NCBI GenBank assembly: GCA_021799485.1
Contig: JAJZAK010000001.1
Location: forward strand, 34,458-98,457
From: a bacterium
GTDB lineage: Bacteria; Elusimicrobiota; Elusimicrobia; UBA1565; UBA9628
Direction: 5' to 3'
DNA: 64,000 nucleotides
The notes beneath the pieces were generated by a model, which worked only from the letters and a program-made list of their open reading frames with translations, had not been told where the DNA came from and did not search any database. Positions 26,629-64,000 of this stretch are shown here, piece after piece. Each line of letters opens with the position of its first letter. Within the stretch, counting starts at the first letter, position 1. The translations under genes and the position numbers were made by a program.

Positions 26629-27909
26629 CTAAATTTTCGCGGCGTCGACCACGCGGTTGCGGCCAGACGACTTGGCGCGGTAAAGCGCGGAGTCGGCCCG
26701 CGCGACGAGATCCTCGGGGGTAGACGCGTCCCGCGGGAAAAAGGCGAGGCCGATCGACGCCGTGACCTCGACGGCATCGAGGCCGACCGCCAGGCGCTCC
26801 GCCTCGATCGTCCGGCGAACCGCCTCCGCTTTGCGCGCGACGCCCTCGGCGTCCGCGCGGGGCAGGATCACCGCGAACTCCTCGCCTCCATAGCGCGCCA
26901 CGTAGTCCGTCTCGTAGAAGGAGCCGTTCAATATTTCGCCGATGCGCTTGAGAACCCGGTCGCCGAAAGGATGGCCGTAGCGGTCGTTAAGTTGCTTGAA
27001 ATGGTCGATATCGAGAATCATGAGCGCGCAGGGGGCTTTGAACGTCCGCGCGCGGGCGACTTCATAGCGGATCCTTTCCTCGAAGTCACCCCTCCGGTGG
27101 ACCCCCGTCAGGCCGTCCAGGCGAGAGAGGTTCTCCACCTCCTGGAATAGTCTGATGCGGCGGAAGGCGAAAGAGACTTCGGAAACGAAGGTTCCCGCCT
27201 TCGAAAGAAGCCCCGCGGGATCTCCGCCTCGCGGGATCCGAGCGTAAAAATACCCCAGCGTCTCCTCTCCTTCGGCGATAGGAAGCCCCATCGCCAGCTC
27301 GGGCTTGCGAAGAACCTGGGGCCGGGCCAAGTCCAATCCCTGCTCTTGAAGGCAGCGAGAGAGAGTGGCCCACGACCCTCCGGGAGACCCCTCCAGGCGC
27401 CGCAGGGACACAAGGCGGGGCAGGCGGCCATCCTCGGAGGCGGCGTAGAGGGCGAACTCCTCGACGCCTAGATACCCGGCGGCGGCGCCCTCCAGCTTGG
27501 GGCGGATTTCAGCCCAGCTCAAGGCTTCCGGAAGGGTCTTGGCGAGGTCATAGAGAACAAGGGTCTCCTTCTCTTCCTGGTCCGTCTTCAGGCCCAGGGC
27601 CTTGGCCTCGGCCAGGGCCGCCTTCGCCTGTTCGACCCTCTCGCCGACGGCGCCGCGCTCGCCGCGCAGGGCCGAGGAGCGGCCCGCGGCGCGCATCACG
27701 CTCGCGAGCGCGGCGGCGGCCAAAAGGGAATCCGCCGTCCCGGCCGCGAGCCCCGACGGGCCGGCGGCGAGAAACGCGGCCGCGAAGGCCGCCCCGGCCG
27801 CGAGCGCGAAACCCAGGACTCCGGCCCAAGGCTTGCGCCCAAGTCCCATGAAGATGATCATCGCCGCGAGAAAGGGCGCGAGCGCCGAGAGCAAGAGGCC
27901 GGCCGTCAT
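26629..27909 (-). CDS. diguanylate cyclase (GGDEF domain) with N-terminal TM/sensor region
   Basis: RLDGLTGVHRRGDFEERI, ILDIDHFKQLNDRYGHPFGD, YVARYGGEEFAVILP (GGEEF active site). Confidence 0.85.
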   Translation of the reverse strand: MTAGLLLSALAPFLAAMIIFMGLGRKPWAGVLGFALAAGAAFAAAFLAAGPSGLAAGTADSLLAAAALASVMRAAGRSSALRGERGAVGERVEQAKAALAEAKALGLKTDQEEKETLVLYDLAKTLPEALSWAEIRPKLEGAAAGYLGVEEFALYAASEDGRLPRLVSLRRLEGSPGGSWATLSRCLQEQGLDLARPQVLRKPELAMGLPIAEGEETLGYFYARIPRGGDPAGLLSKAGTFVSEVSFAFRRIRLFQEVENLSRLDGLTGVHRRGDFEERIRYEVARARTFKAPCALMILDIDHFKQLNDRYGHPFGDRVLKRIGEILNGSFYETDYVARYGGEEFAVILPRADAEGVARKAEAVRRTIEAERLAVGLDAVEVTASIGLAFFPRDASTPEDLVARADSALYRAKSSGRNRVVDAAKI

Positions 27910-29234
27910 CGTCCCTGGGTCCTGTTGCGGCCGGCGTGCTTGGCCCGGTAGAGGCGCTCATCCGCCGCGCGCACGAATTGGCTCTCGATCGCCGCGTCCT
28001 CCGGGAAGACGGCGACGCCGAGGCTCACCGTGACGCGGCTCGCTTCCCCCTTGAAGACAAAGACCTCGCGGGAGATCGCCTGGCGCGCGCTCTCCGCGAG
28101 CGCGTAGGCCTCCGCGTAGGGCAGTTGAGGCAGGAGCAGGCAGAACTCCTCCCCTCCGTACCGCGCCGCCATATCCACGTCCCGAATATGCTTGAAAAGG
28201 ACCGATGACACGCGCTTCAAGAGCTCGTCGCCGGCCTGGTGGCCGTAGCGGTCGTTGTAGGACTTGAAGTGGTCGATGTCGATCATGACGAGGGAAAGCG
28301 GCAAGCGCGTCCGCCCCGCGCGCAGGACCTCCTCATGAAGCCTCTCGTCGAAGGCTTTCCGGCTGTAGAGCTGGGTGAGGGCGTCGTGCACGGCCTGAGA
28401 GCGGATGCGCTCGTAAAGAATGATGTTCTCGAGGCTCAGGCCCGCGAGAGTCGCGAGGAGATCGGCGCCCTTGAGTTCGGGTTCCGAGAAAGCCGCCGGC
28501 TTCGGCGACGAAATCTTGACGTAGCCCGCCGGCTCCCGGCTCACGCGAAGCGGAAGGACCATCGCGGAACGGACGCCCCCCTCCGCGCCGCGCAGGCGCT
28601 CGTCCGCCGCGGCGTCGGAGACGAGGAGGGGCCGCCGGCTCGCGGCCGAAAGGCGCAGGAACGGGTCCGCCCCCTCCTCTCCTTTAAACTCGACCGCGGC
28701 TCCGGGGAAGCGATCGCCCAGAATCTCCCCCAGCTTGCGAAAGACCTCCTCCCGGCTCAAGCTCCGGCCGAGGATCTTCGCGCTCTGGGCCATATCGCGC
28801 CTTAATTGAATGCGCGCGGCGGCCTCCCGATGCCGGCTCCGATAGTAGTCGAGGCCGCGTTCGGCCTCCTTGATTTCCCTTAAATCCGCGTCCGCCTCGG
28901 CGGCGAGCCTGGCCTCCTCGCGCCCGAGAGCCCCCCGCGATTCCGAGAGGGCCCAGCTCAAAATCCAGAGCCCGGCGGTGTCCAGGCCCACCGCGATCGC
29001 CGCCGGCCCTTCCAGGGAGCGCGCGAGGGATATCCCGGCACCTGTCGACAGGACGAGGAACAAAACGACCAGCTCCGACTGCCCCGCGCCGTCGCACCAG
29101 AAAAAAAGAAGCCCATAGGCAGGGAAGACGGCCGCGGCGAGATCGCGGCGAGCGAAGAGAAGCCAGGAGAGGCCCACGAAAAAGAGACCCGCGACGAGGA
29201 AGTTCGCGGCTTTTTTCTGTGGCATGAGCGGCAC
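27906..29234 (-). CDS. diguanylate cyclase (GGDEF domain) with N-terminal TM/sensor region
   Basis: HDALTQLYSRKAFDERL, MIDIDHFKSYNDRYGHQAGD, MAARYGGEEFCLLLP. ATGA overlap with the downstream paralog. Confidence 0.85.
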   Translation of the reverse strand: MPLMPQKKAANFLVAGLFFVGLSWLLFARRDLAAAVFPAYGLLFFWCDGAGQSELVVLFLVLSTGAGISLARSLEGPAAIAVGLDTAGLWILSWALSESRGALGREEARLAAEADADLREIKEAERGLDYYRSRHREAAARIQLRRDMAQSAKILGRSLSREEVFRKLGEILGDRFPGAAVEFKGEEGADPFLRLSAASRRPLLVSDAAADERLRGAEGGVRSAMVLPLRVSREPAGYVKISSPKPAAFSEPELKGADLLATLAGLSLENIILYERIRSQAVHDALTQLYSRKAFDERLHEEVLRAGRTRLPLSLVMIDIDHFKSYNDRYGHQAGDELLKRVSSVLFKHIRDVDMAARYGGEEFCLLLPQLPYAEAYALAESARQAISREVFVFKGEASRVTVSLGVAVFPEDAAIESQFVRAADERLYRAKHAGRNRTQGR

Positions 29235-32591: not shown

Positions 32592-33824
32592 ATGGCGCTT
32601 ATCGTTAAACAGGGGGAAGTGCCGCGCACCCCGCACACGGAATTCTACGGCCAAGACGGGAGCCTGGCCCTGGAGGAAATCCACGGATCGAAAGGTTTTT
32701 CCGGCGCCTTCTCGCGCAAGATGCATCTTCGCCGCTACCCGACGGTCCAGTCTCGCCCTCCGAAACTCCTCAAATGGTCCCTGGCGCCCAGGCCCGCTTT
32801 GCGCCTCCCTCTCCAGCCTTTTCATCTGAGGACGGGCGCCCTGCCGTACCGCGGCGACTATCCGCGCTCCCGCCGAGTCCTCCTTCACGGCCGCACGACC
32901 GCGATCTCCGTGGCCAAGTTCGACAGGTCCTCCCCGGCGCGGGAGTTCTTCCGCAACGGCGAGGCTCACGAACTCCTCTTCGTCCAAGAGGGGCGCGGCG
33001 TCCTCGAGACGGAGTATGGGGAACTCCCCTTTGAACCGAGGCTCTATCTCGTCGTCCCGAAGGGGACCACCCTGCGCCTCAAGCTCGAGACGCCGCGGGC
33101 CTTCTTTCTCGTGATCGAGTCCTCCTACCCCATCGAGTTCCCCCCCCACTACTTCAACCCGGACGGCCAGGCCACGCTCATGTCCCCCGTAGTCGAGACC
33201 GAAATCGGCCTGCCCAAGCTCCAGAGGCCCCAGGACGTCCGCGGAGACTACGCCGTCCTCGTCAAGCACGGGGGAGGACGCCTCACTCAGATCACGCTCG
33301 GCCACCATCCCTTCGACCTCGTCGGCTGGGAGGGGGCGCTTTATCCCTTCAGCTTCGAATGCTCTCGCCACCATTCGATCGCCCGGGAGATTCACACGGC
33401 TCCACCCGCGCGGCAAACATTCCAGTCGGGCTCCGCTCCCCACAACGGCTTCTCGATCTGCACTTTCCGCGGCCAGATCGAGGGGTGGCATCCCGAGGAT
33501 GTCCCGGCGCCCTACGCGCATTTCAACGCCGACTCCGACGAAATGATGTTTTTCTCCGACACGAGCTACGGCGCCCGGCAAGGCGTCATCGAGCCGGGAT
33601 CGATCACGTTTCATCCGGGGGCGCTCCCCCACAGCCCGCACGGCGACGCCGCGAGGCGCTCCTTCGCGCAGCGCGGCAAGCTGTCCCATTATCTGGCCGT
33701 CATGCTCGACACCTTCTTCGAGCCCCTCGAGATCACGCGGGAAGGCTGGGCCTGCGCGCAGAAGGACTATCCCTTGAGCTGGGCGAAGGCGGAGGGAGCC
33801 TCGGGAGCCGTCCTCTCCGCGTAG
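32592..33824 (+). CDS. homogentisate 1,2-dioxygenase-like cupin protein (putative)
   Basis: About 410 aa with His-containing cupin-like segments (HELLFVQEGRGVLETEYG..., HHPFDLVGWEG, HSPHG). Adjacent to a FAH-family gene as in the homogentisate pathway. Assignment by overall resemblance only. Confidence 0.6.
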   Translation: MALIVKQGEVPRTPHTEFYGQDGSLALEEIHGSKGFSGAFSRKMHLRRYPTVQSRPPKLLKWSLAPRPALRLPLQPFHLRTGALPYRGDYPRSRRVLLHGRTTAISVAKFDRSSPAREFFRNGEAHELLFVQEGRGVLETEYGELPFEPRLYLVVPKGTTLRLKLETPRAFFLVIESSYPIEFPPHYFNPDGQATLMSPVVETEIGLPKLQRPQDVRGDYAVLVKHGGGRLTQITLGHHPFDLVGWEGALYPFSFECSRHHSIAREIHTAPPARQTFQSGSAPHNGFSICTFRGQIEGWHPEDVPAPYAHFNADSDEMMFFSDTSYGARQGVIEPGSITFHPGALPHSPHGDAARRSFAQRGKLSHYLAVMLDTFFEPLEITREGWACAQKDYPLSWAKAEGASGAVLSA

Positions 33825-55783: not shown

Positions 55784-57238
55784 ATGGACACGATGAAGAC
55801 CCTGTTTCTCAACCCCCCTTCCTACGAAGGTTTTGACGGGGGCGCGGGCGCCCGATATCAGGCCCGGCGAGAGATCCGCTCTTTCTGGTACCCCACGTGG
55901 CTTGCCCAGCCGGCGGCGCTGATCCCCAATTCCAAGCTCATCGACGCCCCCGCGGATGACCTCACCGTCGAGGAAACCCTCCGGCGCGCCAAGGACTGCG
56001 AGCTCGCCATCCTCCACACCTCGACCCCCTCCTTCGACAACGACGTCCGCTTCGCCCAAGCGCTCAAGGATCAGAACCCGAGCATCAAGGTCGGCCTCGT
56101 GGGCGCCCACGTGGCGGTCCTGCCGGAAGAGTCCCTCAAGGCGAGCGCGGCGCTTGATTTCGTGGCCCGCGAGGAGTTCGATTTCACGATCCTCGACGTC
56201 GCCCGGGGCAAACCCCTGGCGGACATCCCGGGGCTGAGCTACCGCCAAAACGGCGCCGTCTCCCATAATCCCGACCGGGAGCTCATCGGCGACATGGACT
56301 CCCTGCCGAGCGTCATCGACGTCTACAAGAGGGATCTCACGATCGAGAATTACTATATCGGGTACTTGAAGCACCCCTATGTTTCCCTCTACACCGGCCG
56401 CGGATGCCCCGCGCGCTGCACCTTCTGCCTCTGGCCGCAGACGGTCGGCGGCCACGTCTACCGGACCAAAAGCGCCAAGAAGGTGATCTCCGAGATGGCG
56501 CGAGCCGCCGAGCTTTTCCCCCAAGTCAAGGAATTTTTCTTCGACGACGACACCTTCACGGCCGATCTCGCCCGCGCCGCGGAGATCGCCAAGGGCCTCG
56601 GCCGACTGGGCTTGACCTGGTCCTGCAACGCTCGCGCGAACGTGCCCTACGAGTATCTCAAGATATTCCGCGACAACGGCCTGCGCCTTCTCCTCGTCGG
56701 CTACGAATCGGGGAACCAACAGATTCTCAACAACATCAAGAAGGGCATCCGCATCGACATCGCCAGGGAATTCACCCGCAACTGCCGTTCGCTTGGCATC
56801 ACAATCCACGGAACCTTCATCCTGGGCTTGCCCGGCGAAAACCAAGAGACGATCGAGGAGTCGATCCGCTACGCCTGTGATCTGGACGTCGACACCATCC
56901 AAGTCTCCCTCGCGGCCCCCTATCCCGGAACGGAACTCTACCGCCAAGCCATGGCCAACAAATGGTTCGACGAGAACGCGCTCGTGCGCAACGACGGGAC
57001 CCAGGCCTGCACCCTCGAATATCCGCATTTGACGGGGGACGACATCGCGGCCGGCGTGAAGCGATTTTATTCCCGGTTTTACTTCAGGCCCCGCCCCATC
57101 GGGCGCATGATCCTGCAGATGGCGCGCGATCCCCACGAGCGTCGGCGGCGCCTTCGCGAAGGCATCGAGTTCTTGAGCTACCTAAAAAAACGGACGAAAG
57201 AACCCTCCGCGGCCGCTTCCCAGACGGTGCCAGCTTAG
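55784..57238 (+). CDS. B12-binding radical SAM protein, hopanoid-associated HpnJ-like
   Basis: N-terminal B12-binding-like domain, radical SAM CxxxCxxC in GRGCPARCTFCLWPQ. Start MKTLFLNPPSYEGFDGGAGARYQARREIRSFWYPTWLAQPAAL recalled as HpnJ-family N-terminus. Followed by HpnI-like and HpnK-like genes. Confidence 0.65.
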   Translation: MDTMKTLFLNPPSYEGFDGGAGARYQARREIRSFWYPTWLAQPAALIPNSKLIDAPADDLTVEETLRRAKDCELAILHTSTPSFDNDVRFAQALKDQNPSIKVGLVGAHVAVLPEESLKASAALDFVAREEFDFTILDVARGKPLADIPGLSYRQNGAVSHNPDRELIGDMDSLPSVIDVYKRDLTIENYYIGYLKHPYVSLYTGRGCPARCTFCLWPQTVGGHVYRTKSAKKVISEMARAAELFPQVKEFFFDDDTFTADLARAAEIAKGLGRLGLTWSCNARANVPYEYLKIFRDNGLRLLLVGYESGNQQILNNIKKGIRIDIAREFTRNCRSLGITIHGTFILGLPGENQETIEESIRYACDLDVDTIQVSLAAPYPGTELYRQAMANKWFDENALVRNDGTQACTLEYPHLTGDDIAAGVKRFYSRFYFRPRPIGRMILQMARDPHERRRRLREGIEFLSYLKKRTKEPSAAASQTVPA

Positions 57239-57253
57239 GGCTCATTCCGCCCC

Positions 57254-58543
57254 GTGGCTTGGCTCCTCAAGGCCGTCGCGGCGGCCACCGGGGTGTTCTC
57301 GGCTTTTTTCTTTCTCGCCTCGTTGGCCTTGCTCCGCCGCCGCTTCGCGAAAAGCAAAGGCAAGGGGGGTCCGGCTTTCGGTTTTTTCGAAACAGAATCC
57401 GCAAAATCCAAAAAAATCGAAAACCGGACCCCCCAAGACCTGCCTCCCGTCACAATCCTCAAACCCTTGCGCGGGACGGACCCGGACCTGGATGAAAATC
57501 TCGAGAGCTTCTGCCGCCAGGACTACCCCTCCTTCCAGATCGTCCTAACCGCGCAGGACCCCGACGACCCCGCCCTCCCCGCCGCGCGGCGGCTGCAAAA
57601 AAAATTCCCCGACATACCCATTGACGTCACGGTCGGCTCCAGGCCTCTCGGGAACAATCCCAAGATCAACAACTTGGCCGGCGGAGTTCCGCTCGCTCGC
57701 CACGATCTCTGGCTTATCTCGGACTCCGACGTCAAGGTGGACGAGGGCTTTTTAAAAAACGCCGTGATCAAGCTTCGCCGCGAAAAGCTCTCGTTGGTAT
57801 CGGCGTTTTATCTCTCGACGGGGGCCTCGACGGCGTGGGAGCGGCTCGAGGGCCTTCTCCTCAACGCCCATTTCACGCCCGCGGCGGTCGTCGGCGCGGC
57901 GCTCGGCAAGCCCTTCGCCATGGGGGCCGCGATGCTGGTCGACAGGCCCGCCCTGGAGCGCGTCGGCGGCTTGGGCGCCATCGCCGACTATCTCGCGGAC
58001 GACTACCGGCTCGCCCTGGAAATCGCGCGGGCGCGCGGGCGCGTTGGATTCGCGGACGAGCTCGTCAAAACCCGAAACGCCTGCCCGACCCTCGCGCATT
58101 ACTGGATCCGGGAGAGCCGGTATTTTGGCACCCTTCGAGTATGCGACCCGGCCGGGTACGCGGGATTGCTTTTTCTCCAGGGTTTTTCCATCCTCTCTCT
58201 GCGGATCGCCTTCTTCGGGCCCGACCCCGTCAGCCTCTGTCTCGCGGCCGCCATTCTCGCCTCAAGGGCGGCTTTTTTATCCGCCATCCTGGGCCTCGGC
58301 TCCGGCCGACGGCCTTCATGGAGAGACTACCTCCTTCTGCCCGTCGGCGAATGGTCGTCATTCGGGCTTTGGATTGCCGGCTTCTTCGCCCGCTCGGTCT
58401 CATGGCGCGGCCGGCGTTATAAGATCGTCCGGGGTGGGCGCCTGGAGCCAGTCAAGGAGGCGGCCGGAACGAAAACGGATGGAACGTTCGCGTCTTCCGG
58501 CTTCTCGCTTCCTCCTTCGAGCTCCAAGACAGCCGCCGCATGA
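57254..58543 (+). CDS. GT2/GT21-like glycosyltransferase, HpnI / ceramide-glucosyltransferase-like
   Basis: PPVTILKPLRGTDPDLDENLESFCRQDYP (the ILKPL-G-D motif of GT21/HpnI), DSD...D catalytic region, C-terminal TM helices. Confidence 0.6.
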   Translation: MAWLLKAVAAATGVFSAFFFLASLALLRRRFAKSKGKGGPAFGFFETESAKSKKIENRTPQDLPPVTILKPLRGTDPDLDENLESFCRQDYPSFQIVLTAQDPDDPALPAARRLQKKFPDIPIDVTVGSRPLGNNPKINNLAGGVPLARHDLWLISDSDVKVDEGFLKNAVIKLRREKLSLVSAFYLSTGASTAWERLEGLLLNAHFTPAAVVGAALGKPFAMGAAMLVDRPALERVGGLGAIADYLADDYRLALEIARARGRVGFADELVKTRNACPTLAHYWIRESRYFGTLRVCDPAGYAGLLFLQGFSILSLRIAFFGPDPVSLCLAAAILASRAAFLSAILGLGSGRRPSWRDYLLLPVGEWSSFGLWIAGFFARSVSWRGRRYKIVRGGRLEPVKEAAGTKTDGTFASSGFSLPPSSSKTAAA

Positions 58544-59532
58544 AGATTTTCGAGCGAATCGTCCTCATCGCAGGCTTCGCGACGCTGGCGGCTCTCGTCA
58601 TCAAGCTCAATCCATCGGTCGTCGCCCACGATATCATGACGGTCGGATGGGGTTTTCTCCTCATCCTCCCGTTCCCGGTCTTCGACAACATCTTCAATTC
58701 GATCGCCTGGCGTTTCTCGTTTTCAAGGCACGAGGCCAAAGGGCTTCCCTTTCTCGCGCTTTTTAGGGGCCGCGTGGCCGGAGACGGGGTGAATTACTTG
58801 ACCCCGAGCGGGACCATCGCCGGCGAATTCGTCCGTCCCGGCATGCTGGGCGACATCCGAACCGCCGAGGTCAAAAACGCGAGCGTCATCGTGGCGAAGC
58901 TCTCGCAGAGCCTCGCGCAGGCGCTATTCATCCTCATCGGCCTTTTTTTCGTCATCGACGGCCCGCTGCATTTCTTAAACGGCCGGTCGAGGCATCTGGC
59001 GACGGGGTGGGCCCTGCTCGTCGGGACGATCATCCTGGGCTCCGTCGCCTTCCTCGCCATGAAGCCGGCGCCCGGGAAACGCCCGTGGCAGGCGCAGGGG
59101 CGCTTCGCGGCCTTGCGCGCCGTCATCCGCGGATACCTTCTCGATCATCCCGTGCGCTTGACGGCGTCGATCCTCTTTTTCGGCTTGGGCTATCTCTGGG
59201 GCGCCGCCGAGGTCCTTCTCATCACCCGCTTCATGGGCCTGTCTCTTCCCCTTGAGACCGCCCTGGCCGTCGAGGTCCTCTCCAATATCCTCGACTCCCT
59301 CATGTTCATGGTCCCGGCGAAGGTGGGCACTCAGGAAGCCGGGAAAACGGCCATCTTCTATTGGCTGGGCTATCCCGCGAGCCAGGGCTTGGCCTTCGGG
59401 CTCATCCGGCACCTGCGGGAGATCCTCTGGGCCGCCGCGGGGTTTCTGCTCTACGCCGTCAACCGCCGCTCGCTCCCTTCGGCCGCGGCTCCTCCACGAG
59501 CTCTATCCGAGCTGTTGCGAGAGCCTCTTTGA
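58540..59532 (+). CDS. UPF0104 / lysylphosphatidylglycerol-synthase-TM-region-like (flippase-like) membrane protein
   Basis: About 8 TM helices. Resembles the LPG_synthase_TM / TIGR00374 family pattern (GDGVNYLTPSGTIAGEFVRP). Confidence 0.5.
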   Translation: MKIFERIVLIAGFATLAALVIKLNPSVVAHDIMTVGWGFLLILPFPVFDNIFNSIAWRFSFSRHEAKGLPFLALFRGRVAGDGVNYLTPSGTIAGEFVRPGMLGDIRTAEVKNASVIVAKLSQSLAQALFILIGLFFVIDGPLHFLNGRSRHLATGWALLVGTIILGSVAFLAMKPAPGKRPWQAQGRFAALRAVIRGYLLDHPVRLTASILFFGLGYLWGAAEVLLITRFMGLSLPLETALAVEVLSNILDSLMFMVPAKVGTQEAGKTAIFYWLGYPASQGLAFGLIRHLREILWAAAGFLLYAVNRRSLPSAAAPPRALSELLREPL

Positions 59533-60274
59533 CGCGGGGGCTGCGCAGGCACTGGAACTCCTCGTAAGAATGGTGGCTGCTCGTGGGCCGGCCGCGTCCG
59601 CTCGCATCCCTGTCCGAAGGCTCGGCGCTTGGGTGGAAGTACATCTCGGAGAGTCCCTGGGGAAGCCTCGAAAGAAGGTGAACGACGTAATCCTCGCTCA
59701 TGAGTCCCGAGCGCATCAGCCCCCACGTCCTTTCGGGGAGCAGGACTCCGTGCGTTTTCCTGCGCAGATAACGCCCCAAGGCCTCATAGGTCGCCGCCAA
59801 GGCCGCCCGTCCCGCGGCTCCCGTTTTTTCATACCCCCGCCAGGCACGCCACTCCCCGTTCGGCAGCCTCGTGCGCGGGATGCCGTACTCCCTCGCGAGC
59901 CTCGTGAGAACGGGAAAGATCGTGGGATGGGCGTGGAGATGGAAATGGCCGTCGATATGCGTGGGCTTGAGTCCCATCGCCAGGAACTTCTCGATCTGGG
60001 CTCTCATGAGCGGCTCGACGGCGCGACGGCCCGAGGGGAGGCCGAAATAACGGATTCCCCACAGGGCGGGATTCTCCCGGCACAGCTCGACGTGGATGCC
60101 GACGCCCAGGCCCGGGTTTTTCTTGGCGATCGCCGCCGCTTCGTCGGCGTAAGGGCCGTCGACCATCAGGCTCGCATAGCGGAGTATTCCCTCGCGGTAG
60201 CCTCGCAGGACCGCCTCGTTTAAGCCCCGGGTCAGGCCGAAATCATCCGCCGTGACGATGAGACGCTTGGCCAT
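59459..60274 (-). CDS. YdjC/ChbG-family carbohydrate deacetylase, HpnK-like
   Basis: Start MAKRLIVTADDFGLTRGLNEAVLRGY is the YdjC/HpnK N-terminal motif. The upstream ORF-track extension is discarded. Confidence 0.7.
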   Translation of the reverse strand: MAKRLIVTADDFGLTRGLNEAVLRGYREGILRYASLMVDGPYADEAAAIAKKNPGLGVGIHVELCRENPALWGIRYFGLPSGRRAVEPLMRAQIEKFLAMGLKPTHIDGHFHLHAHPTIFPVLTRLAREYGIPRTRLPNGEWRAWRGYEKTGAAGRAALAATYEALGRYLRRKTHGVLLPERTWGLMRSGLMSEDYVVHLLSRLPQGLSEMYFHPSAEPSDRDASGRGRPTSSHHSYEEFQCLRSPRVKEALATARIELVEEPRPKGASGG

Positions 60275-60291: not shown

Positions 60292-60759
60292 TTAATCCGG
60301 CCTGCTGACAATTTGAAGCTCGCAACTCTGGCACGTTGAATTGGATGGGGAACACTTTTGTTGGACGGTCACCGGCGCCCCCAGCGGGTCCTCCGGATTA
60401 TTGCAGATCACCTGGCAAGCGCAATTAGGAGGCATGGCGCTTCCCGCGGCGCCGGCAGACACGGTCGCTTGCGGGGTGGTGCCGCATTGCGCGCACGGCC
60501 AGCCCTGGATATTGGGACAGGCATCGGCGCAGGAGGGCGACTGGGCATTCAACTGATAGGGGACCCAGGCCGTGTCCAAGACCGCGTAGATGCTTTCGCT
60601 CATCGTCCTGCCCGTCTCCGAGTTCTGCTGCCTCATGCCCAACGTGTAGCGGGCCAAAAAAAGCTGGGATAGAAAGGCCGCGATCACCGCGACAACGATG
60701 CTGACAACGAGGACGTAGAGGAGGACGGAACCATCGCGGTTCCTCAATTGGGATCGCAT
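60292..60759 (-). CDS. GspK-like minor pseudopilin-like protein, Cys-rich, hypothetical
   Basis: Start MRSQLRNRDGSVLLYVLVVSIVVAVIAAFL (pseudopilin-like hydrophobic N-terminus lacking Glu+5, as in GspK). About 10 Cys in the mature part. TAATG overlap with upstream gene. Confidence 0.4.
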   Translation of the reverse strand: MRSQLRNRDGSVLLYVLVVSIVVAVIAAFLSQLFLARYTLGMRQQNSETGRTMSESIYAVLDTAWVPYQLNAQSPSCADACPNIQGWPCAQCGTTPQATVSAGAAGSAMPPNCACQVICNNPEDPLGAPVTVQQKCSPSNSTCQSCELQIVSRPD

Positions 60760-61430
60760 TATCCGCCCCCCAGATTGATCGGGAAGGCCGTCGTCACCAT
60801 CAAGTCGCTCGGGATGACCCCCTCCGTGCCCGCTTTGGTGCCGACGCAAAAATTGGCCTCGATTTGGGCGAGCGGCATGTTGACGACGAAGTTGGGACGC
60901 CCCTCCCCGGTAGGATAGCATGTGAGAGCGGCCGACCCCACCGGCGGGGCGGCGAAAAAGCTGCCGGCGGACAGAATTTGAGTGGGATCGCTGCCAGTGC
61001 AAGGGCAGTGGCCGCCATTCCCGATGGTAGCGCTGTAGCGGGTGCCCCATAGATTATTATCCCCATCCACCCAGTAATGAAAACAAACGATCATATCGTT
61101 CGGGTTATTGCTCAACGGCCCCGCCACGTCGATGCCGTTGACGGAGAGCGAGTTCGGCGTATAGGAGCTCGGCGCGGACCAGTTATCGCAGCCGCCGATG
61201 CTGGTCGAATTGTTCGTCTGGCTGGCGTCGATGGAGGTGGCGTTTCGGAAATCGCTCAGCATCGTCTCGATGTTGAGCGCGGTCATTCCGCTGACTCTCG
61301 CCTGTCTAGATCCCTTGAGCTGATACTGCACCATCGTGCTCATGAGCATCAGAGCCGCCGACATGACGACGGTGACCAGGAGAATACCGACAATAAGCTC
61401 AATAAGGGTGAATCCACGTTGGCTTTTCAT
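60759..61430 (-). CDS. type IV pilin / T2SS pseudopilin-like protein (prepilin-type N-terminal methylation motif)
   Basis: Start MKSQRGFTLIELIVGILLV (G|FTLIEL cleavage/methylation motif). The upstream part of the 265-aa ORF-track entry is discarded. Confidence 0.6.
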   Translation of the reverse strand: MKSQRGFTLIELIVGILLVTVVMSAALMLMSTMVQYQLKGSRQARVSGMTALNIETMLSDFRNATSIDASQTNNSTSIGGCDNWSAPSSYTPNSLSVNGIDVAGPLSNNPNDMIVCFHYWVDGDNNLWGTRYSATIGNGGHCPCTGSDPTQILSAGSFFAAPPVGSAALTCYPTGEGRPNFVVNMPLAQIEANFCVGTKAGTEGVIPSDLMVTTAFPINLGGG

Positions 61431-61972
61431 GGACACATTTGCGAGCAAGACGGCACGACACAACCTGGCTGACCGGGAGGGCACCAGGACATAGTAATCG
61501 TGACGGAGCTGATTTGGGCTCCAGGGGGCCCAATAGCCGGGCCCACGCAATAGCACATGTTGGCGCGGCTCCCAGCGGAGGCCAATTGGGGCGGAAGATA
61601 GCTGTTGGCTTGATGATAGCCTTGGCTTAAAGCATACCCGCTATTGGGCCCCGTATCACCCGGAAACTGCCATCCCGAATTGCCGGGGGGACATAAGGGA
61701 TTCTGGGGATTCGACGCGTTGCAACCGCCGCAGCCGGGCGCGGCGAAATTCATGTTATTGACGAAAGAACAGTCCTGCGTCGGGGTCACGTATCTCCTCA
61801 GCTGATCCGCGAGGCCTCGCACCGCGTCGCTTCCGACAAGCGTATTATTGGCGATCGGGCCGCTCTGCTTGACCGACAAGACGACGCTGATGACCCCCAT
61901 GGCGATGATGCTGGTCAAGAGGATCGAGACCAGGATTTCCGCGAGCGAAAAGCCCCTTTCCCCGAGTTTCAT
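61427..61972 (-). CDS. type IV pilin / pseudopilin-like protein, Cys-rich
   Basis: MKLGERGFSLAEILVSILL (prepilin motif). About 11 Cys in mature region. Confidence 0.6.
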   Translation of the reverse strand: MKLGERGFSLAEILVSILLTSIIAMGVISVVLSVKQSGPIANNTLVGSDAVRGLADQLRRYVTPTQDCSFVNNMNFAAPGCGGCNASNPQNPLCPPGNSGWQFPGDTGPNSGYALSQGYHQANSYLPPQLASAGSRANMCYCVGPAIGPPGAQISSVTITMSWCPPGQPGCVVPSCSQMCP

Positions 61973-61973
61973 C

Positions 61974-62621
61974 TTATTCGCATCCCGCTCCCGCCTGGGC
62001 GCAGTAAGTCACGCCGCCGTTGAAGGACCCGCTCGCGGGCGCCCCGCCGAAAGGGCAGACGCAGCCCAGTTGGACGTATTCGTAGGCCCAACTCGCGAAA
62101 GGCTTGTCGTTGGTCCCCAGGTTCGTCATCAAGTCCGGGTCGGCGCAGTTCCCGGGCGGATTAGGCTGGCGCGCGGCATAGGCATAGCCGGGCCGCGGCG
62201 CTCCGTTCGGCGTGCTTGGAGCCCCCAGAGGGTCGCCGATGGAATAGAGATACGGCAGACAGTTGAAATCCTGGACGCTTAAATAGCCGCAGGCGACGAT
62301 CTGGCAGGGATCGGCCGCGCTGCCATTATTGAAGATGTAACGGGTGGAGCAACTTATGCCGCCGTCGTCGCAGCATTCCGTATTGCAGCTTGAAGTCAGA
62401 TTGCTGGCGGTAAAAGACGTCACGTTTGGATGATCCACCAAATACATCCTGACGGCGGCTCCGATCATGGCGGTCATGCTCGATGCGTGATCGGCCTTCG
62501 CCACCTCGACGTTCTTGTAATACTGGGCGACGCCCATGGAGGCCAGTATTCCCACGATCACGAGGACAACCAGGATTTCCACGAGGGTGAAACCTCTCCT
62601 CGACGCCGGGCTCGCGATCAT
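61974..62621 (-). CDS. type IV pilin-like protein, Cys-rich paralog
   Basis: MIASPASRRGFTLVEILVVLVIVGILA (prepilin motif), about 13 Cys. Shares DPCQIVACGYLSVQDFNCLPYLY motif with next gene. Confidence 0.65.
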   Translation of the reverse strand: MIASPASRRGFTLVEILVVLVIVGILASMGVAQYYKNVEVAKADHASSMTAMIGAAVRMYLVDHPNVTSFTASNLTSSCNTECCDDGGISCSTRYIFNNGSAADPCQIVACGYLSVQDFNCLPYLYSIGDPLGAPSTPNGAPRPGYAYAARQPNPPGNCADPDLMTNLGTNDKPFASWAYEYVQLGCVCPFGGAPASGSFNGGVTYCAQAGAGCE

Positions 62622-62624
62622 GGC

Positions 62625-63326
62625 TTATTGACAACCCGCCGGACAGCCGGCGTAATTATTCTGGCTCGCGTAGAGACCTTGGCCGCCCGCAACGATGCCG
62701 GGCGGCGGCGCTCCATTCGCCCCCCCATTGGGATTCGGGCATAGACAGCCGTCGCCGTTTGTGGGCGCGGCGGCCATCACATAATAGCCCCACCCTTTAT
62801 AGGGCGTCGAATTGCTTTCCGCGGAAGGCGATTGGCATACGCCCCCTCCTCCCGGGGTCTGCCTCTGGGCGCAGGCGTAGGCCGAAACCCCCGAACAAGG
62901 CAGGCTGCCGGCGCCGTTGCCGACATAGTACAGGTAAGGCTGGCAGTCGAAGTCGTGCATGGTGATGTAGCCGCAGGCGACCAACTGGCAAGGATCGGCG
63001 TTGGGGGGGGCCGTATTTCCGGGATTATGGCACAAGTTGTTGCCGTCGTAGCAGCATTGCGCGGCGCAGGCGTTGTTCAACGGGCCATTGCCTTGAAACC
63101 CGGTCATCATGGGGAAATCGGCTAAATAGGATCGCACCGCGCCGGCCAATATCGATGTGCGGGCCGCGGCGGCATTGGCCTTGGCTACCTCGACCGACTT
63201 CAAGTATTGGGGGATGGCAATGGCGACCAGGATCCCGAGAATGAGCACCGTGACCATAAGCTCGACCAAGGTAAAGCCGGCATGATTGCCTCCCGGCGGC
63301 TTCCCTTCCCCACCGAAGCATTTCAT
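62625..63326 (-). CDS. type IV pilin-like protein, Cys-rich paralog
   Basis: GFTLVELMVTVLILGILVAIAIPQY (prepilin motif), about 15 Cys. Motif DPCQLVACGYITMHDFDCQPYLY. Confidence 0.65.
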   Translation of the reverse strand: MKCFGGEGKPPGGNHAGFTLVELMVTVLILGILVAIAIPQYLKSVEVAKANAAAARTSILAGAVRSYLADFPMMTGFQGNGPLNNACAAQCCYDGNNLCHNPGNTAPPNADPCQLVACGYITMHDFDCQPYLYYVGNGAGSLPCSGVSAYACAQRQTPGGGGVCQSPSAESNSTPYKGWGYYVMAAAPTNGDGCLCPNPNGGANGAPPPGIVAGGQGLYASQNNYAGCPAGCQ

Positions 63327-63365: not shown

Positions 63366-64000
63366 TCAATGAGAGCTCATGGTCGCGAGCTTAAAGATCG
63401 GAAGATAGATGGCCAGCACGACGATCGCCACGAGGACGCCGATCGAAACGACGGCCAGCGGCTCGACGAGCGTTGTGAACCTCAAGATGAACTGAGTGAT
63501 GCGCCGCTGGAAGAACAGGGCGAGAGTCTTGAGCATCTCGGGCAACTTGCCGGATTCCTCCCCCATGAACATCATCTCGATCACGAGCGGCGGCAGAACG
63601 CCGCCGCGACGGAACGCTCCGGAGATGGATTTCCCACTGGCGACGTCTTCCTTGACGTTCTTGAGCATGCGGTGGAAGATGATGTTCTTGGCGAAGAGGC
63701 CCTCGAGGACTGCGAGGGCATTGAGGATGCTGACGCCGCTCTCGATGAGCGTCGACAGCGTCGAAAGGAGGCGCTCGACGAAGATGTTGGTGAAAAAGGC
63801 GCCGAACACCGGCATCTCGAGAATCATCCGCCATTTGGCGACTTGGCCCGCCTCGGTCACGGCATAGGCGCTCCAGCCGAGCCAGCCCGTGATCGCGGCG
63901 ATCACGATGAACATCCAGTCGTGAACGATGAACTCCGAAACGGCGATCACCATCTTCGTCAGGAGAGGCAGCTCCATGTGGAACTCTTTAAAAATCTCCG
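63366..64000 (-). CDS. type II secretion / type IV pilus platform protein GspF/PilC, C-terminal part (N-terminus beyond window end)
   Basis: GspF repeat-domain motifs (ESGVSILNALAVLEG, MMFMGEESGKLPEMLKTLALFF) and C-terminal TM helix. Confidence 0.75.
   Translation of the reverse strand, partial: EIFKEFHMELPLLTKMVIAVSEFIVHDWMFIVIAAITGWLGWSAYAVTEAGQVAKWRMILEMPVFGAFFTNIFVERLLSTLSTLIESGVSILNALAVLEGLFAKNIIFHRMLKNVKEDVASGKSISGAFRRGGVLPPLVIEMMFMGEESGKLPEMLKTLALFFQRRITQFILRFTTLVEPLAVVSIGVLVAIVVLAIYLPIFKLATMSSH

Follow-up and report, generated by a model that had tools for sequence, protein, structure and literature searches.

Five consecutive minus-strand genes near one end of a 64,000-nucleotide stretch of an Elusimicrobiota contig (this whole stretch is referred to below as the window) encode pilin-like proteins unusually rich in cysteine, which we designate A to E. 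We consider it probable that these proteins are the filament subunits of a machine of the type IVa pilus/type II secretion system (T2SS) type, with A as the major subunit, B as its duplicate, C, D and E at the tip, and loops made rigid by disulfides. The initial annotation described an operon of pilins or pseudopilins behind a partial gspF/pilC gene, and this description holds: the five open reading frames (ORFs) and their coordinates are as claimed, A to D carry class III signals, and genes for an ATPase, a secretin and PilM/N/O-like proteins are located upstream. The genes are packed tightly, with junctions of 3 nucleotides (nt) between A and B and 1 nt between B and C; the C stop codon overlaps the D start (ATGA), and the D stop codon overlaps the E start (TAATG). 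A to E therefore form a translationally coupled operon.

Signal motifs and cysteine content of A to E

A class III signal (PF07963/TIGR02532) was defined by Gly at position -1, Phe or Met at +1, Glu at +5 and about 20 hydrophobic residues, with a score at or above the gathering threshold. Behind short basic leaders, the motifs GFTLVEL (A), GFTLVEI (B), GFSLAEI (C) and GFTLIEL (D) are found, and the Pfam N_methyl model (PF07963) returned 31.5, 34.0, 21.2 and 32.9 bits, respectively, against a gathering cut-off of 21.2. The canonical prepilin motif predicted for four of the five genes is thus present in A to D, all of which reach the gathering score. Pilin A consists of a leader of 17 amino acids (aa), MKCFGGEGKPPGGNHAG, followed by FTLVE at the start of a 216-aa mature protein; the mature protein of B is 205 aa long. 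The leader of A includes one Cys and cannot extend further, because an in-frame TAG precedes the ATG by 9 nt. Two orthologues of A (P0002 and P0003) were called with 33-aa leaders and have Met in place of Phe at +1 (G/MTLIELL, where the slash marks cleavage), and the start of B-clade orthologues is often miscalled at MEMLVV, within the signal motif.

The N-terminus of E, MRSQLRNRDG/SVLLYVLVV, contains a Gly and a hydrophobic helix and is without Glu5; the pattern RGSV(L/I)(L/V)xVLV is kept in six E orthologues. Neither N_methyl nor any other Pfam model matched E, and NCBIfam returned a weak match to ComGG_2 (E = 0.01) and a spurious one at 0.19. The GspK model (Pfam T2SSK) gave no match to E in the Pfam and NCBIfam scans, and at 155 aa the protein is too short for the large alpha-domain insert of GspK (about 300 aa or more). 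E was described earlier as a short, Cys-rich, GspK-like protein lacking Glu+5. The missing Glu+5 (G10/SVLLY) and the Cys richness (10 Cys) stand, but since no GspK model matches, the likeness to GspK is best taken as an analogy of operon position and N-terminal pattern, not as membership in that family. A homologue search with E alone retrieved three close relatives only.

Mature A, B, C, D and E contain 14, 12, 10, 6 and 10 Cys, respectively, or 6.5, 5.9, 5.7, 2.8 and 6.5% of residues (5.4% overall). For comparison, the other ORFs of the window (n ~53) have a median Cys content of 0.78% and a maximum of 3.8%, and the filament machinery proteins contain 0-1.4% (0.31% in the secretin, 0% in GspF and 0.37% in the PilMN fusion described below). 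The enrichment is therefore real, strong and limited to the filament subunits. The estimate of about 10-16 Cys per mature domain applies to A, B and C and is too high for D. As had been noted, the sequences are also rich in Gly (10-13%, with 5% in E), Asn (5-8%) and Pro (6-11%). The Cys residues of A occupy positions 87, 91, 92, 99, 113, 118, 128, 144, 152, 164, 194, 196, 228 and 232. B is 44% identical to A over its full length, and the two share the motif reported for them, with a correction of three, not two, residues before DF: DPCQ[LI]VACGY[IL]...DF[DN]C[QL]PYLY. The B-clade homologues P0041-43 and P0155 have 12 Cys each. C carries a Cys-rich, clade-specific C-terminal tail, WCPPGQPGCVVPSCSQMCP.

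A globular-domain family and its predicted disulfides

Beyond their first ~55 residues, A and B have no sequence match in Pfam, NCBIfam or the PDB. A profile restricted to the globular domain was searched exhaustively against 1.84 billion cluster representatives and retrieved 165 clusters at E<=1e-3, of which 43 had E<=1e-10; E<=1e-30 was reached by two clusters alone, those of the A-clade and the B-clade representatives. A word-indexed search with the globular profile returned 140 proteins. Every family member that has a name comes from Elusimicrobia and is labelled either "type IV pilin" or "T2SS protein". A genome scan kept 80 loci, nearly all of them from Elusimicrobia metagenome-assembled genomes (MAGs), and the closest homologue of A (P0002) is encoded on a contig (L009) of an "uncultured Elusimicrobia sp." In the lineage of the window itself, at least four types of A and five of B are represented, with identities of 56-70%.

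Pilins of this family are 160-200 aa long and have in common C.LV.C.Y, Y..WGY and six core Cys. The number of Cys per mature domain ranges from 4 to 14, with a mode of 6 in one set of sequences and 6-8 in the other. Residues C113, C118, Y120, W179 and G193 are invariant among 120 sequences, and individual core Cys are present in 235-252 of 255. Membership was defined (profiles A2/A3) by a match to the globular domain together with core Cys 87, ~98, 113 and 118 and residues Y120, W179 and G193, and A and B belong to the Elusimicrobiota C.LV.C.Y pilin family by this definition. A keeps all six core Cys (positions 87, 98/99, 113, 118, 144 and 152), and the remaining eight are specific to the A/B clade: 91 and 92 (CC), 128, 164, 194/196 (CxC) and 228/232 (Cx3C). 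A and B are extreme members of an uncurated, uncharacterised pilin family that is apparently confined to Elusimicrobiota. The statement that no described pilin family has the A/B motif is accurate in that no curated family or structure covers it, but the family defined by the motif is wider than this locus, as the 165 clusters attest. Our literature searches turned up neither a description of a Cys-rich family of type IV pilins nor an experimental study of a family member; on Elusimicrobia pilins they yielded no more than notes on the presence of genes for PulG-like proteins and type IV pilins. Many pilin-like genes were reportedly listed in the E. minutum genome paper.

An AlphaFold2 model of A was built on a 120-sequence family alignment (predicted local distance difference test (pLDDT) score of 80.3, predicted template modelling score (pTM) of 0.77). 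It contains a helix at residues 20-70, short helices at 85-89 and 113-117, and a four-stranded sheet. As modelled, A is a type IVa pilin fold, i.e., an N-terminal helix plus a four-stranded sheet. A Foldseek search with the model against the PDB gave no significant match, and the fold of A is thus predicted to be pilin-like but divergent. The Pfam scan gave no match to PF00114 (Pilin), the family with a single disulfide-bonded D-region at the C-terminus; A has 14 Cys, not 2. Several of the added Cys of A are located in low-confidence loops of the model (around 91-110 and 205-225). The AlphaFold2 model of E, built from four sequences, had a pLDDT of 50 and was unusable.

In two orthologous operons, L007 and L008, the gene order is secretin, ATPase, GspF, one family pilin, C-like, D-like, E-like and HpnK-like, and in a third locus, L015, the machinery genes, a single family pilin and hpn-like neighbours are retained. 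No B gene is present in L007 and L008; B was found in the clade of the window alone. Orthologues of C are found in L088, L092, L093, L007 and L008, and those of D in L092, L093, L007 and L008. The Cys counts of the major, C-like, D-like and E-like subunits are 6/2/4/6 in L008 (2.9% overall) and 6/6/4/4 in L007 (3.0% overall). Compared with the other operons, the lineage of the window has duplicated its major pilin and raised the Cys content of four of the five subunits. The gains include the C-terminal tail on C and, for E, between four and six additional Cys; D has 6 Cys versus 4 in the D-like proteins of L007 and L008.

The cysteines of these proteins tend to come in pairs. All 13 subunits of the three operons (window, L007 and L008) have an even Cys count, and so do 211 of the 240 family members with a recognisable cleavage site (binomial p = 2.7e-35). 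Orthologues differ by pairs (C from 10 to 8, E from 10 to 8), and D stays at 6 with one Cys relocated. C144 and C152 are jointly absent from P0004 and from the whole B clade, and C87 and C113 tend to be present together across the family (correlation of 0.73). Cys covariation resolves C87-C113 and the joint loss of C144 and C152 only, as the eight clade-specific Cys always co-occur. Even parity and paired gain and loss favour intramolecular disulfides over metal ligands or catalytic thiols, and up to 7, 6, 5, 3 and 5 disulfides are predicted in A, B, C, D and E, respectively.

Machinery, proposed mechanism and alternative explanations

The parent contig, JAKBLQ010000001.1, continues beyond the window end with machinery genes upstream of A to E. 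In the order of transcription, an OmpA-like protein, a 543-aa PilM-N fusion, a 203-aa PilO/GspM-like protein, a 131-aa protein, a 644-aa secretin, a 584-aa ATPase and a 405-aa GspF precede A to E. The ATPase and secretin that were expected beyond the window end are thus both present on the parent contig, and the locus offers candidates for PilM(-N), PilO, the secretin, PilB and PilC. NCBIfam scores were 579 bits for PilB and 548 for GspE with the ATPase, 324 for GspF and 274 for PilC with the platform protein, and 214 for GspD and 199 for PilQ with the secretin; all of them are below the equivalog cut-offs (for the full-length platform, GspF 324 versus 424). The GspD, GspE and GspF models thus score about as well as PilQ, PilB and PilC, and the scores do not tell a type IVa pilus from a T2SS. 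A T2SS would be expected to have GspC, GspL and GspM next to GspD, GspE and GspF and no retraction ATPase, and a type IVa pilus to have PilM, N, O, P, Q, B and C plus the retraction ATPase PilT. The PilM-N fusion matches PilM models and not GspL, the GspM match is weak (E = 4e-4), and GspC was not found in the NCBIfam scan of the machinery proteins. The secretin (L001:4667-6601, just beyond the window end) has a long low-complexity (GGGM)n insert between its N-domains, and its orthologue at L015:7812-9710 has a (GGQQ)n insert in the same place. The fusion (L001:1623-3254; also L015:4806-6437) joins a PilM-like actin-fold domain to a transmembrane/periplasmic part, and both the fusion and the secretin are weakly similar to the Akkermansia Amuc_1101/Amuc_1098 pilus-complex families.

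One can propose the following scheme, modelled on the established pathway of class III signal peptide proteins. The prepilins would insert into the inner membrane, a PilD-type peptidase (assumed, as none is encoded in the window) would cut after the Gly, and the PilB/GspE-like ATPase together with the GspF/PilC platform would extract the subunits and assemble the filament through the secretin, whose gene is located upstream. A would serve as the major subunit. B, the lineage-specific duplicate, may be either a second (major) subunit that co-polymerises with A or an adaptor similar to GspH/FimU. C, D and E would form a priming or tip complex, with E as a Glu5-less cap analogous to GspK/PilX. 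The disulfides would staple the long Gly/Asn/Pro-rich loops onto a small pilin core, and a filament stapled in this way would be expected to resist unfolding and proteolysis.

The main competitor of this scheme is a T2SS, in which A to E would correspond to the pseudopilins GspG-H-I-J-K and, in place of a surface pilus, would build a short piston in the periplasm that drives folded exoproteins through the secretin; the disulfides would stabilise the pseudopilus. We regard it as unlikely. In its favour, the genes follow the order E-F-G-H-I-J-K, the last of the five pilin-like genes encodes a protein without Glu5, and the best N-terminal NCBIfam match of A and B is GspG (4.7e-10 and 1.2e-10). 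The platform scores higher with GspF than with PilC and the secretin slightly higher with GspD than with PilQ, no PilT-type retraction ATPase is encoded within the ~74 kb examined, and the architecture of the PilM-N fusion resembles that of GspL. On the other hand, every equivalog score is below its cut-off, the ATPase scores higher with PilB than with GspE, and the fusion matches PilM rather than GspL, in a locus where GspC was not found. The GspG match itself is partial: A and B scored 39.6 and 41.6 bits against the TIGR01710 cut-off of 88.85, covering model positions 1-56 of 134, and there is no Pfam T2SSG match, so that the globular T2SSG domain is unmatched; mature A, at 216 aa, also exceeds the 134 positions of the model. 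Orthologous operons contain four pilin genes only, and heavy stabilisation of every subunit would be easier to rationalise for an exposed filament.

A different role for the cysteines, as functional thiols that bind a metal (Zn, Fe, Cu or Fe-S) or take part in redox or exchange reactions and so produce a metal-binding, conductive or covalently adhesive filament, is very improbable. Local CxxC, Cx3C, CC and CxC motifs do occur in A, C and E, and free Cys are known in pilins, the CPxC pair of Myxococcus xanthus PilA not being disulfide-bonded (PMC11046646). This role is at odds with the even parity seen in 13 of 13 operon proteins and 88% of the family, with the pairwise gain and loss of Cys among orthologues, and with the added Cys being spread over loops and strands of the pilin fold instead of forming one site. 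A to E have no CxxCH haem motif and no match to a metal-binding or redox family in the Pfam and NCBIfam scans. A to E are periplasmic or extracellular proteins, in which paired Cys normally oxidise. Of the two readings that the initial annotation attached to the Cys density, disulfides are thus favoured by parity and by paired gain and loss, and no positive evidence for metal or redox chemistry emerged. Nor can the five genes be dismissed as gene-calling artefacts or decaying paralogues without function. Overlapping spurious ORFs are common in a window of 64% GC, but the A to E proteins are identical on up to 10 contigs from four source collections (NCBI, JGI, Logan and ENA), their orthologues (56-70% identity) keep length, Cys positions and gene order, the start/stop overlaps point to translational coupling, and the Pfam signal motifs are significant. 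The probability of an artefact is practically negligible, and the conservation data effectively refute it.

Several observations weigh against a disulfide-stapled filament of the kind we propose. No gene for a prepilin peptidase (A24), for DsbA, DsbB or VKOR, or for PilT is present in ~74 kb (the window plus 10 kb upstream), and the capacity for prepilin processing and oxidative folding is therefore presumed. The Cys count is odd in 29 of the 240 family members, some of which are fragments or have miscalled starts, and CGGC in C, CADAC, CAQC and CQSC in E, and CPAGC in A could in principle be metal-binding or redox-active. In the model of A, loops 91-110 and 205-225 have a pLDDT of 50-64. Profiles of C, D and E searched against the PDB match nothing past the N-terminal helix, and the roles of B to E are drawn from gene order and N-termini. 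A more far-reaching version of the proposed filament can also be imagined, in which all five subunits gained Cys pairs together in one lineage to give a heteropolymeric, disulfide-reinforced pilus, some of the CxxC/Cx3C cysteines (in C, in E and in the CPAGC of A) being set aside for thiol exchange or metal binding. We give this version little credence; if true, it would mean that pilus assembly or adhesion can be covalent or redox-active in a manner so far undescribed for type IV filaments.

Two further candidates were rejected. A multihaem cytochrome or e-pilin nanowire is inconsistent with the lack of CxxCH and with proteins of 155-233 aa, not truncated, aromatic-rich ones of ~60-90 aa; the matches to Geopilin end at the N-terminal helix. 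A phage or mobile origin of the locus is inconsistent with the window flanks, which consist of housekeeping and lipopolysaccharide (LPS) genes (among them LpxK, heptosyltransferases, ribosomal proteins and CTP synthase). The locus is chromosomal, and the bacterium is a diderm.

Neither the machine, which is not of a new type, nor the architecture of the pilins is out of the ordinary, and what stands out is an uncurated globular family apparently restricted to one phylum, together with an extent and an operon-wide coordination of Cys gain beyond anything characterised. A major pilin with up to seven disulfides would widen the known range of filament stabilisation and would provide a natural test of how much covalent stapling is tolerated by a subunit that must still be extracted from the membrane and polymerised. 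A curated family model would improve the annotation of a poorly studied phylum, and the family is a potential scaffold for very stable engineered protein filaments.

Coordinates of the pilin operon and of the genes on either side of it in the window are listed in Table 1.

Table 1. Genes of the pilin operon and its immediate neighbours (window coordinates)
Feature	Coordinates	Strand	Evidence
Partial platform gene gspF/pilC (3' part)	63366..64000	-	Pfam T2SSF 2.9e-23; NCBIfam GspF 1.7e-46 (window fragment)
Pilin A, putative major subunit, 233 aa	62625..63326	-	class III signal motif
Pilin B, paralogue of A, 215 aa	61974..62621	-	N_methyl 1.8e-8
Minor pilin C (putative), 181 aa	61427..61972	-	N_methyl 21.2 bits, at threshold; PilW in JGI annotation
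Minor pilin D (putative), 223 aa	60759..61430	-	N_methyl 4.2e-8
Pilin-like protein E, 155 aa	60292..60759	-	GspK/PilX/ComGG position; N-terminal pattern
YdjC/HpnK-like deacetylase gene	59459..60274	-	NCBIfam HpnK 201 bits vs cut-off 232.6

The HpnK-like deacetylase gene, which shares the strand of E and follows it after 17 nt, is probably co-transcribed with the pilin genes; an HpnK-like gene also follows the E-like gene in L007 (with a 4-nt overlap) and in L008. It belongs to an hpnI-J-K-L-like set (55784-60274) that adjoins the pilin operon and resembles the enzymes of the bacteriohopanepolyol glucosamine/cyclitol-ether side chain. HpnJ exceeds its cut-off (778 versus 578), and HpnI (283 versus 310), HpnK (201 versus 233) and HpnL (112 versus 196) are below theirs. 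Such a set is found beside the pilin operon in three other Elusimicrobiota MAG loci (L007:6244-9285, L008:2239-6667 and L015:10569-12753). Its substrate may be a hopanoid, another lipid or a pilin glycan. Elsewhere in the window, two back-to-back GGDEF diguanylate cyclase genes, one of them with a GAF domain, are located at 26629-29234 (minus strand), and the filament ATPase has an MshEN-type N-terminal domain with a weak match to a cyclic di-GMP-binding motif (E = 8e-4), which hints at control of the filament by cyclic di-GMP. At 32592-33824 (plus strand), genes for a protein like homogentisate 1,2-dioxygenase (HgmA_N) and for a member of the fumarylacetoacetase family suggest O2-dependent aromatic catabolism, which would be consistent with an oxidising periplasm able to form disulfides.

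Comparison with characterised pilins and pseudopilins

With type IVa pilins such as gonococcal PilE (1ay2), Pseudomonas aeruginosa PilA (8tum/1oqw) and Dichelobacter nodosus FimA (3sok), A shares the G/F..E signal and, in its model, a long N-terminal helix followed by a four-stranded antiparallel sheet. Like them, it is encoded beside a machine of the PilB/PilC/secretin type. The likeness in sequence ends at the N-terminal helix, and mature A is larger (216 aa versus ~145-160). Its 17-aa leader is also long, since leaders of type IVa pilins typically have 5-7 aa.

With the pseudopilins GspG (PulG, EpsG) and GspH-I-J-K, A to E share the gene order after gspE-gspF. The GspG model matches the N-terminal ~55 residues of A and B, and E resembles GspK in being the last subunit and in lacking Glu5. 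Against the GspG/H/I/J/K models, the globular domains of A to E score far below the cut-offs, only the N-terminus being covered. GspG is small, Cys-free and stabilised by Ca, and GspK has ~330 aa, compared to 155 aa in E.

A characterised counterpart of A is the major pilin PilA of M. xanthus (8tj2), a 208-aa protein whose 6 Cys make up two disulfides and one CPxC pair; the pilus was proposed to be stiffened by the size of this pilin and its extra contacts (PMC11046646). Both are large type IVa-like pilins with extra Cys, and A matches the Myxococcus PilA model of NCBIfam at its N-terminus (9.2e-9), but M. xanthus PilA has less than half the Cys count of A. In most major pilins the D-region holds a single disulfide, while some others have two or lack disulfides, and at least 6 Cys are found in only ~9% of large major pilins (PMC11046646). 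The 14 Cys of A thus compare with the usual 2 of type IVa pilins, which form the single D-region disulfide, and ordinary major pilins are indeed far poorer in Cys than A to E, as had been stated, with mostly one disulfide (PMC11046646).

Relatives of A and B outside the window clade are the uncharacterised Elusimicrobiota pilins with 6-8 Cys (e.g., P0005, P0044 and P0050), which are true homologues of the A/B globular domain (E down to 1e-27) and occupy the same locus, beside the same machinery and hpn-like genes. These proteins are typically 160-180 aa long, whereas pilins of the window clade are 30-60 aa longer and have eight extra Cys. The window clade differs from other family members in addition by the duplication of the pilin gene into A and B and by the enrichment of its minor pilins in Cys.

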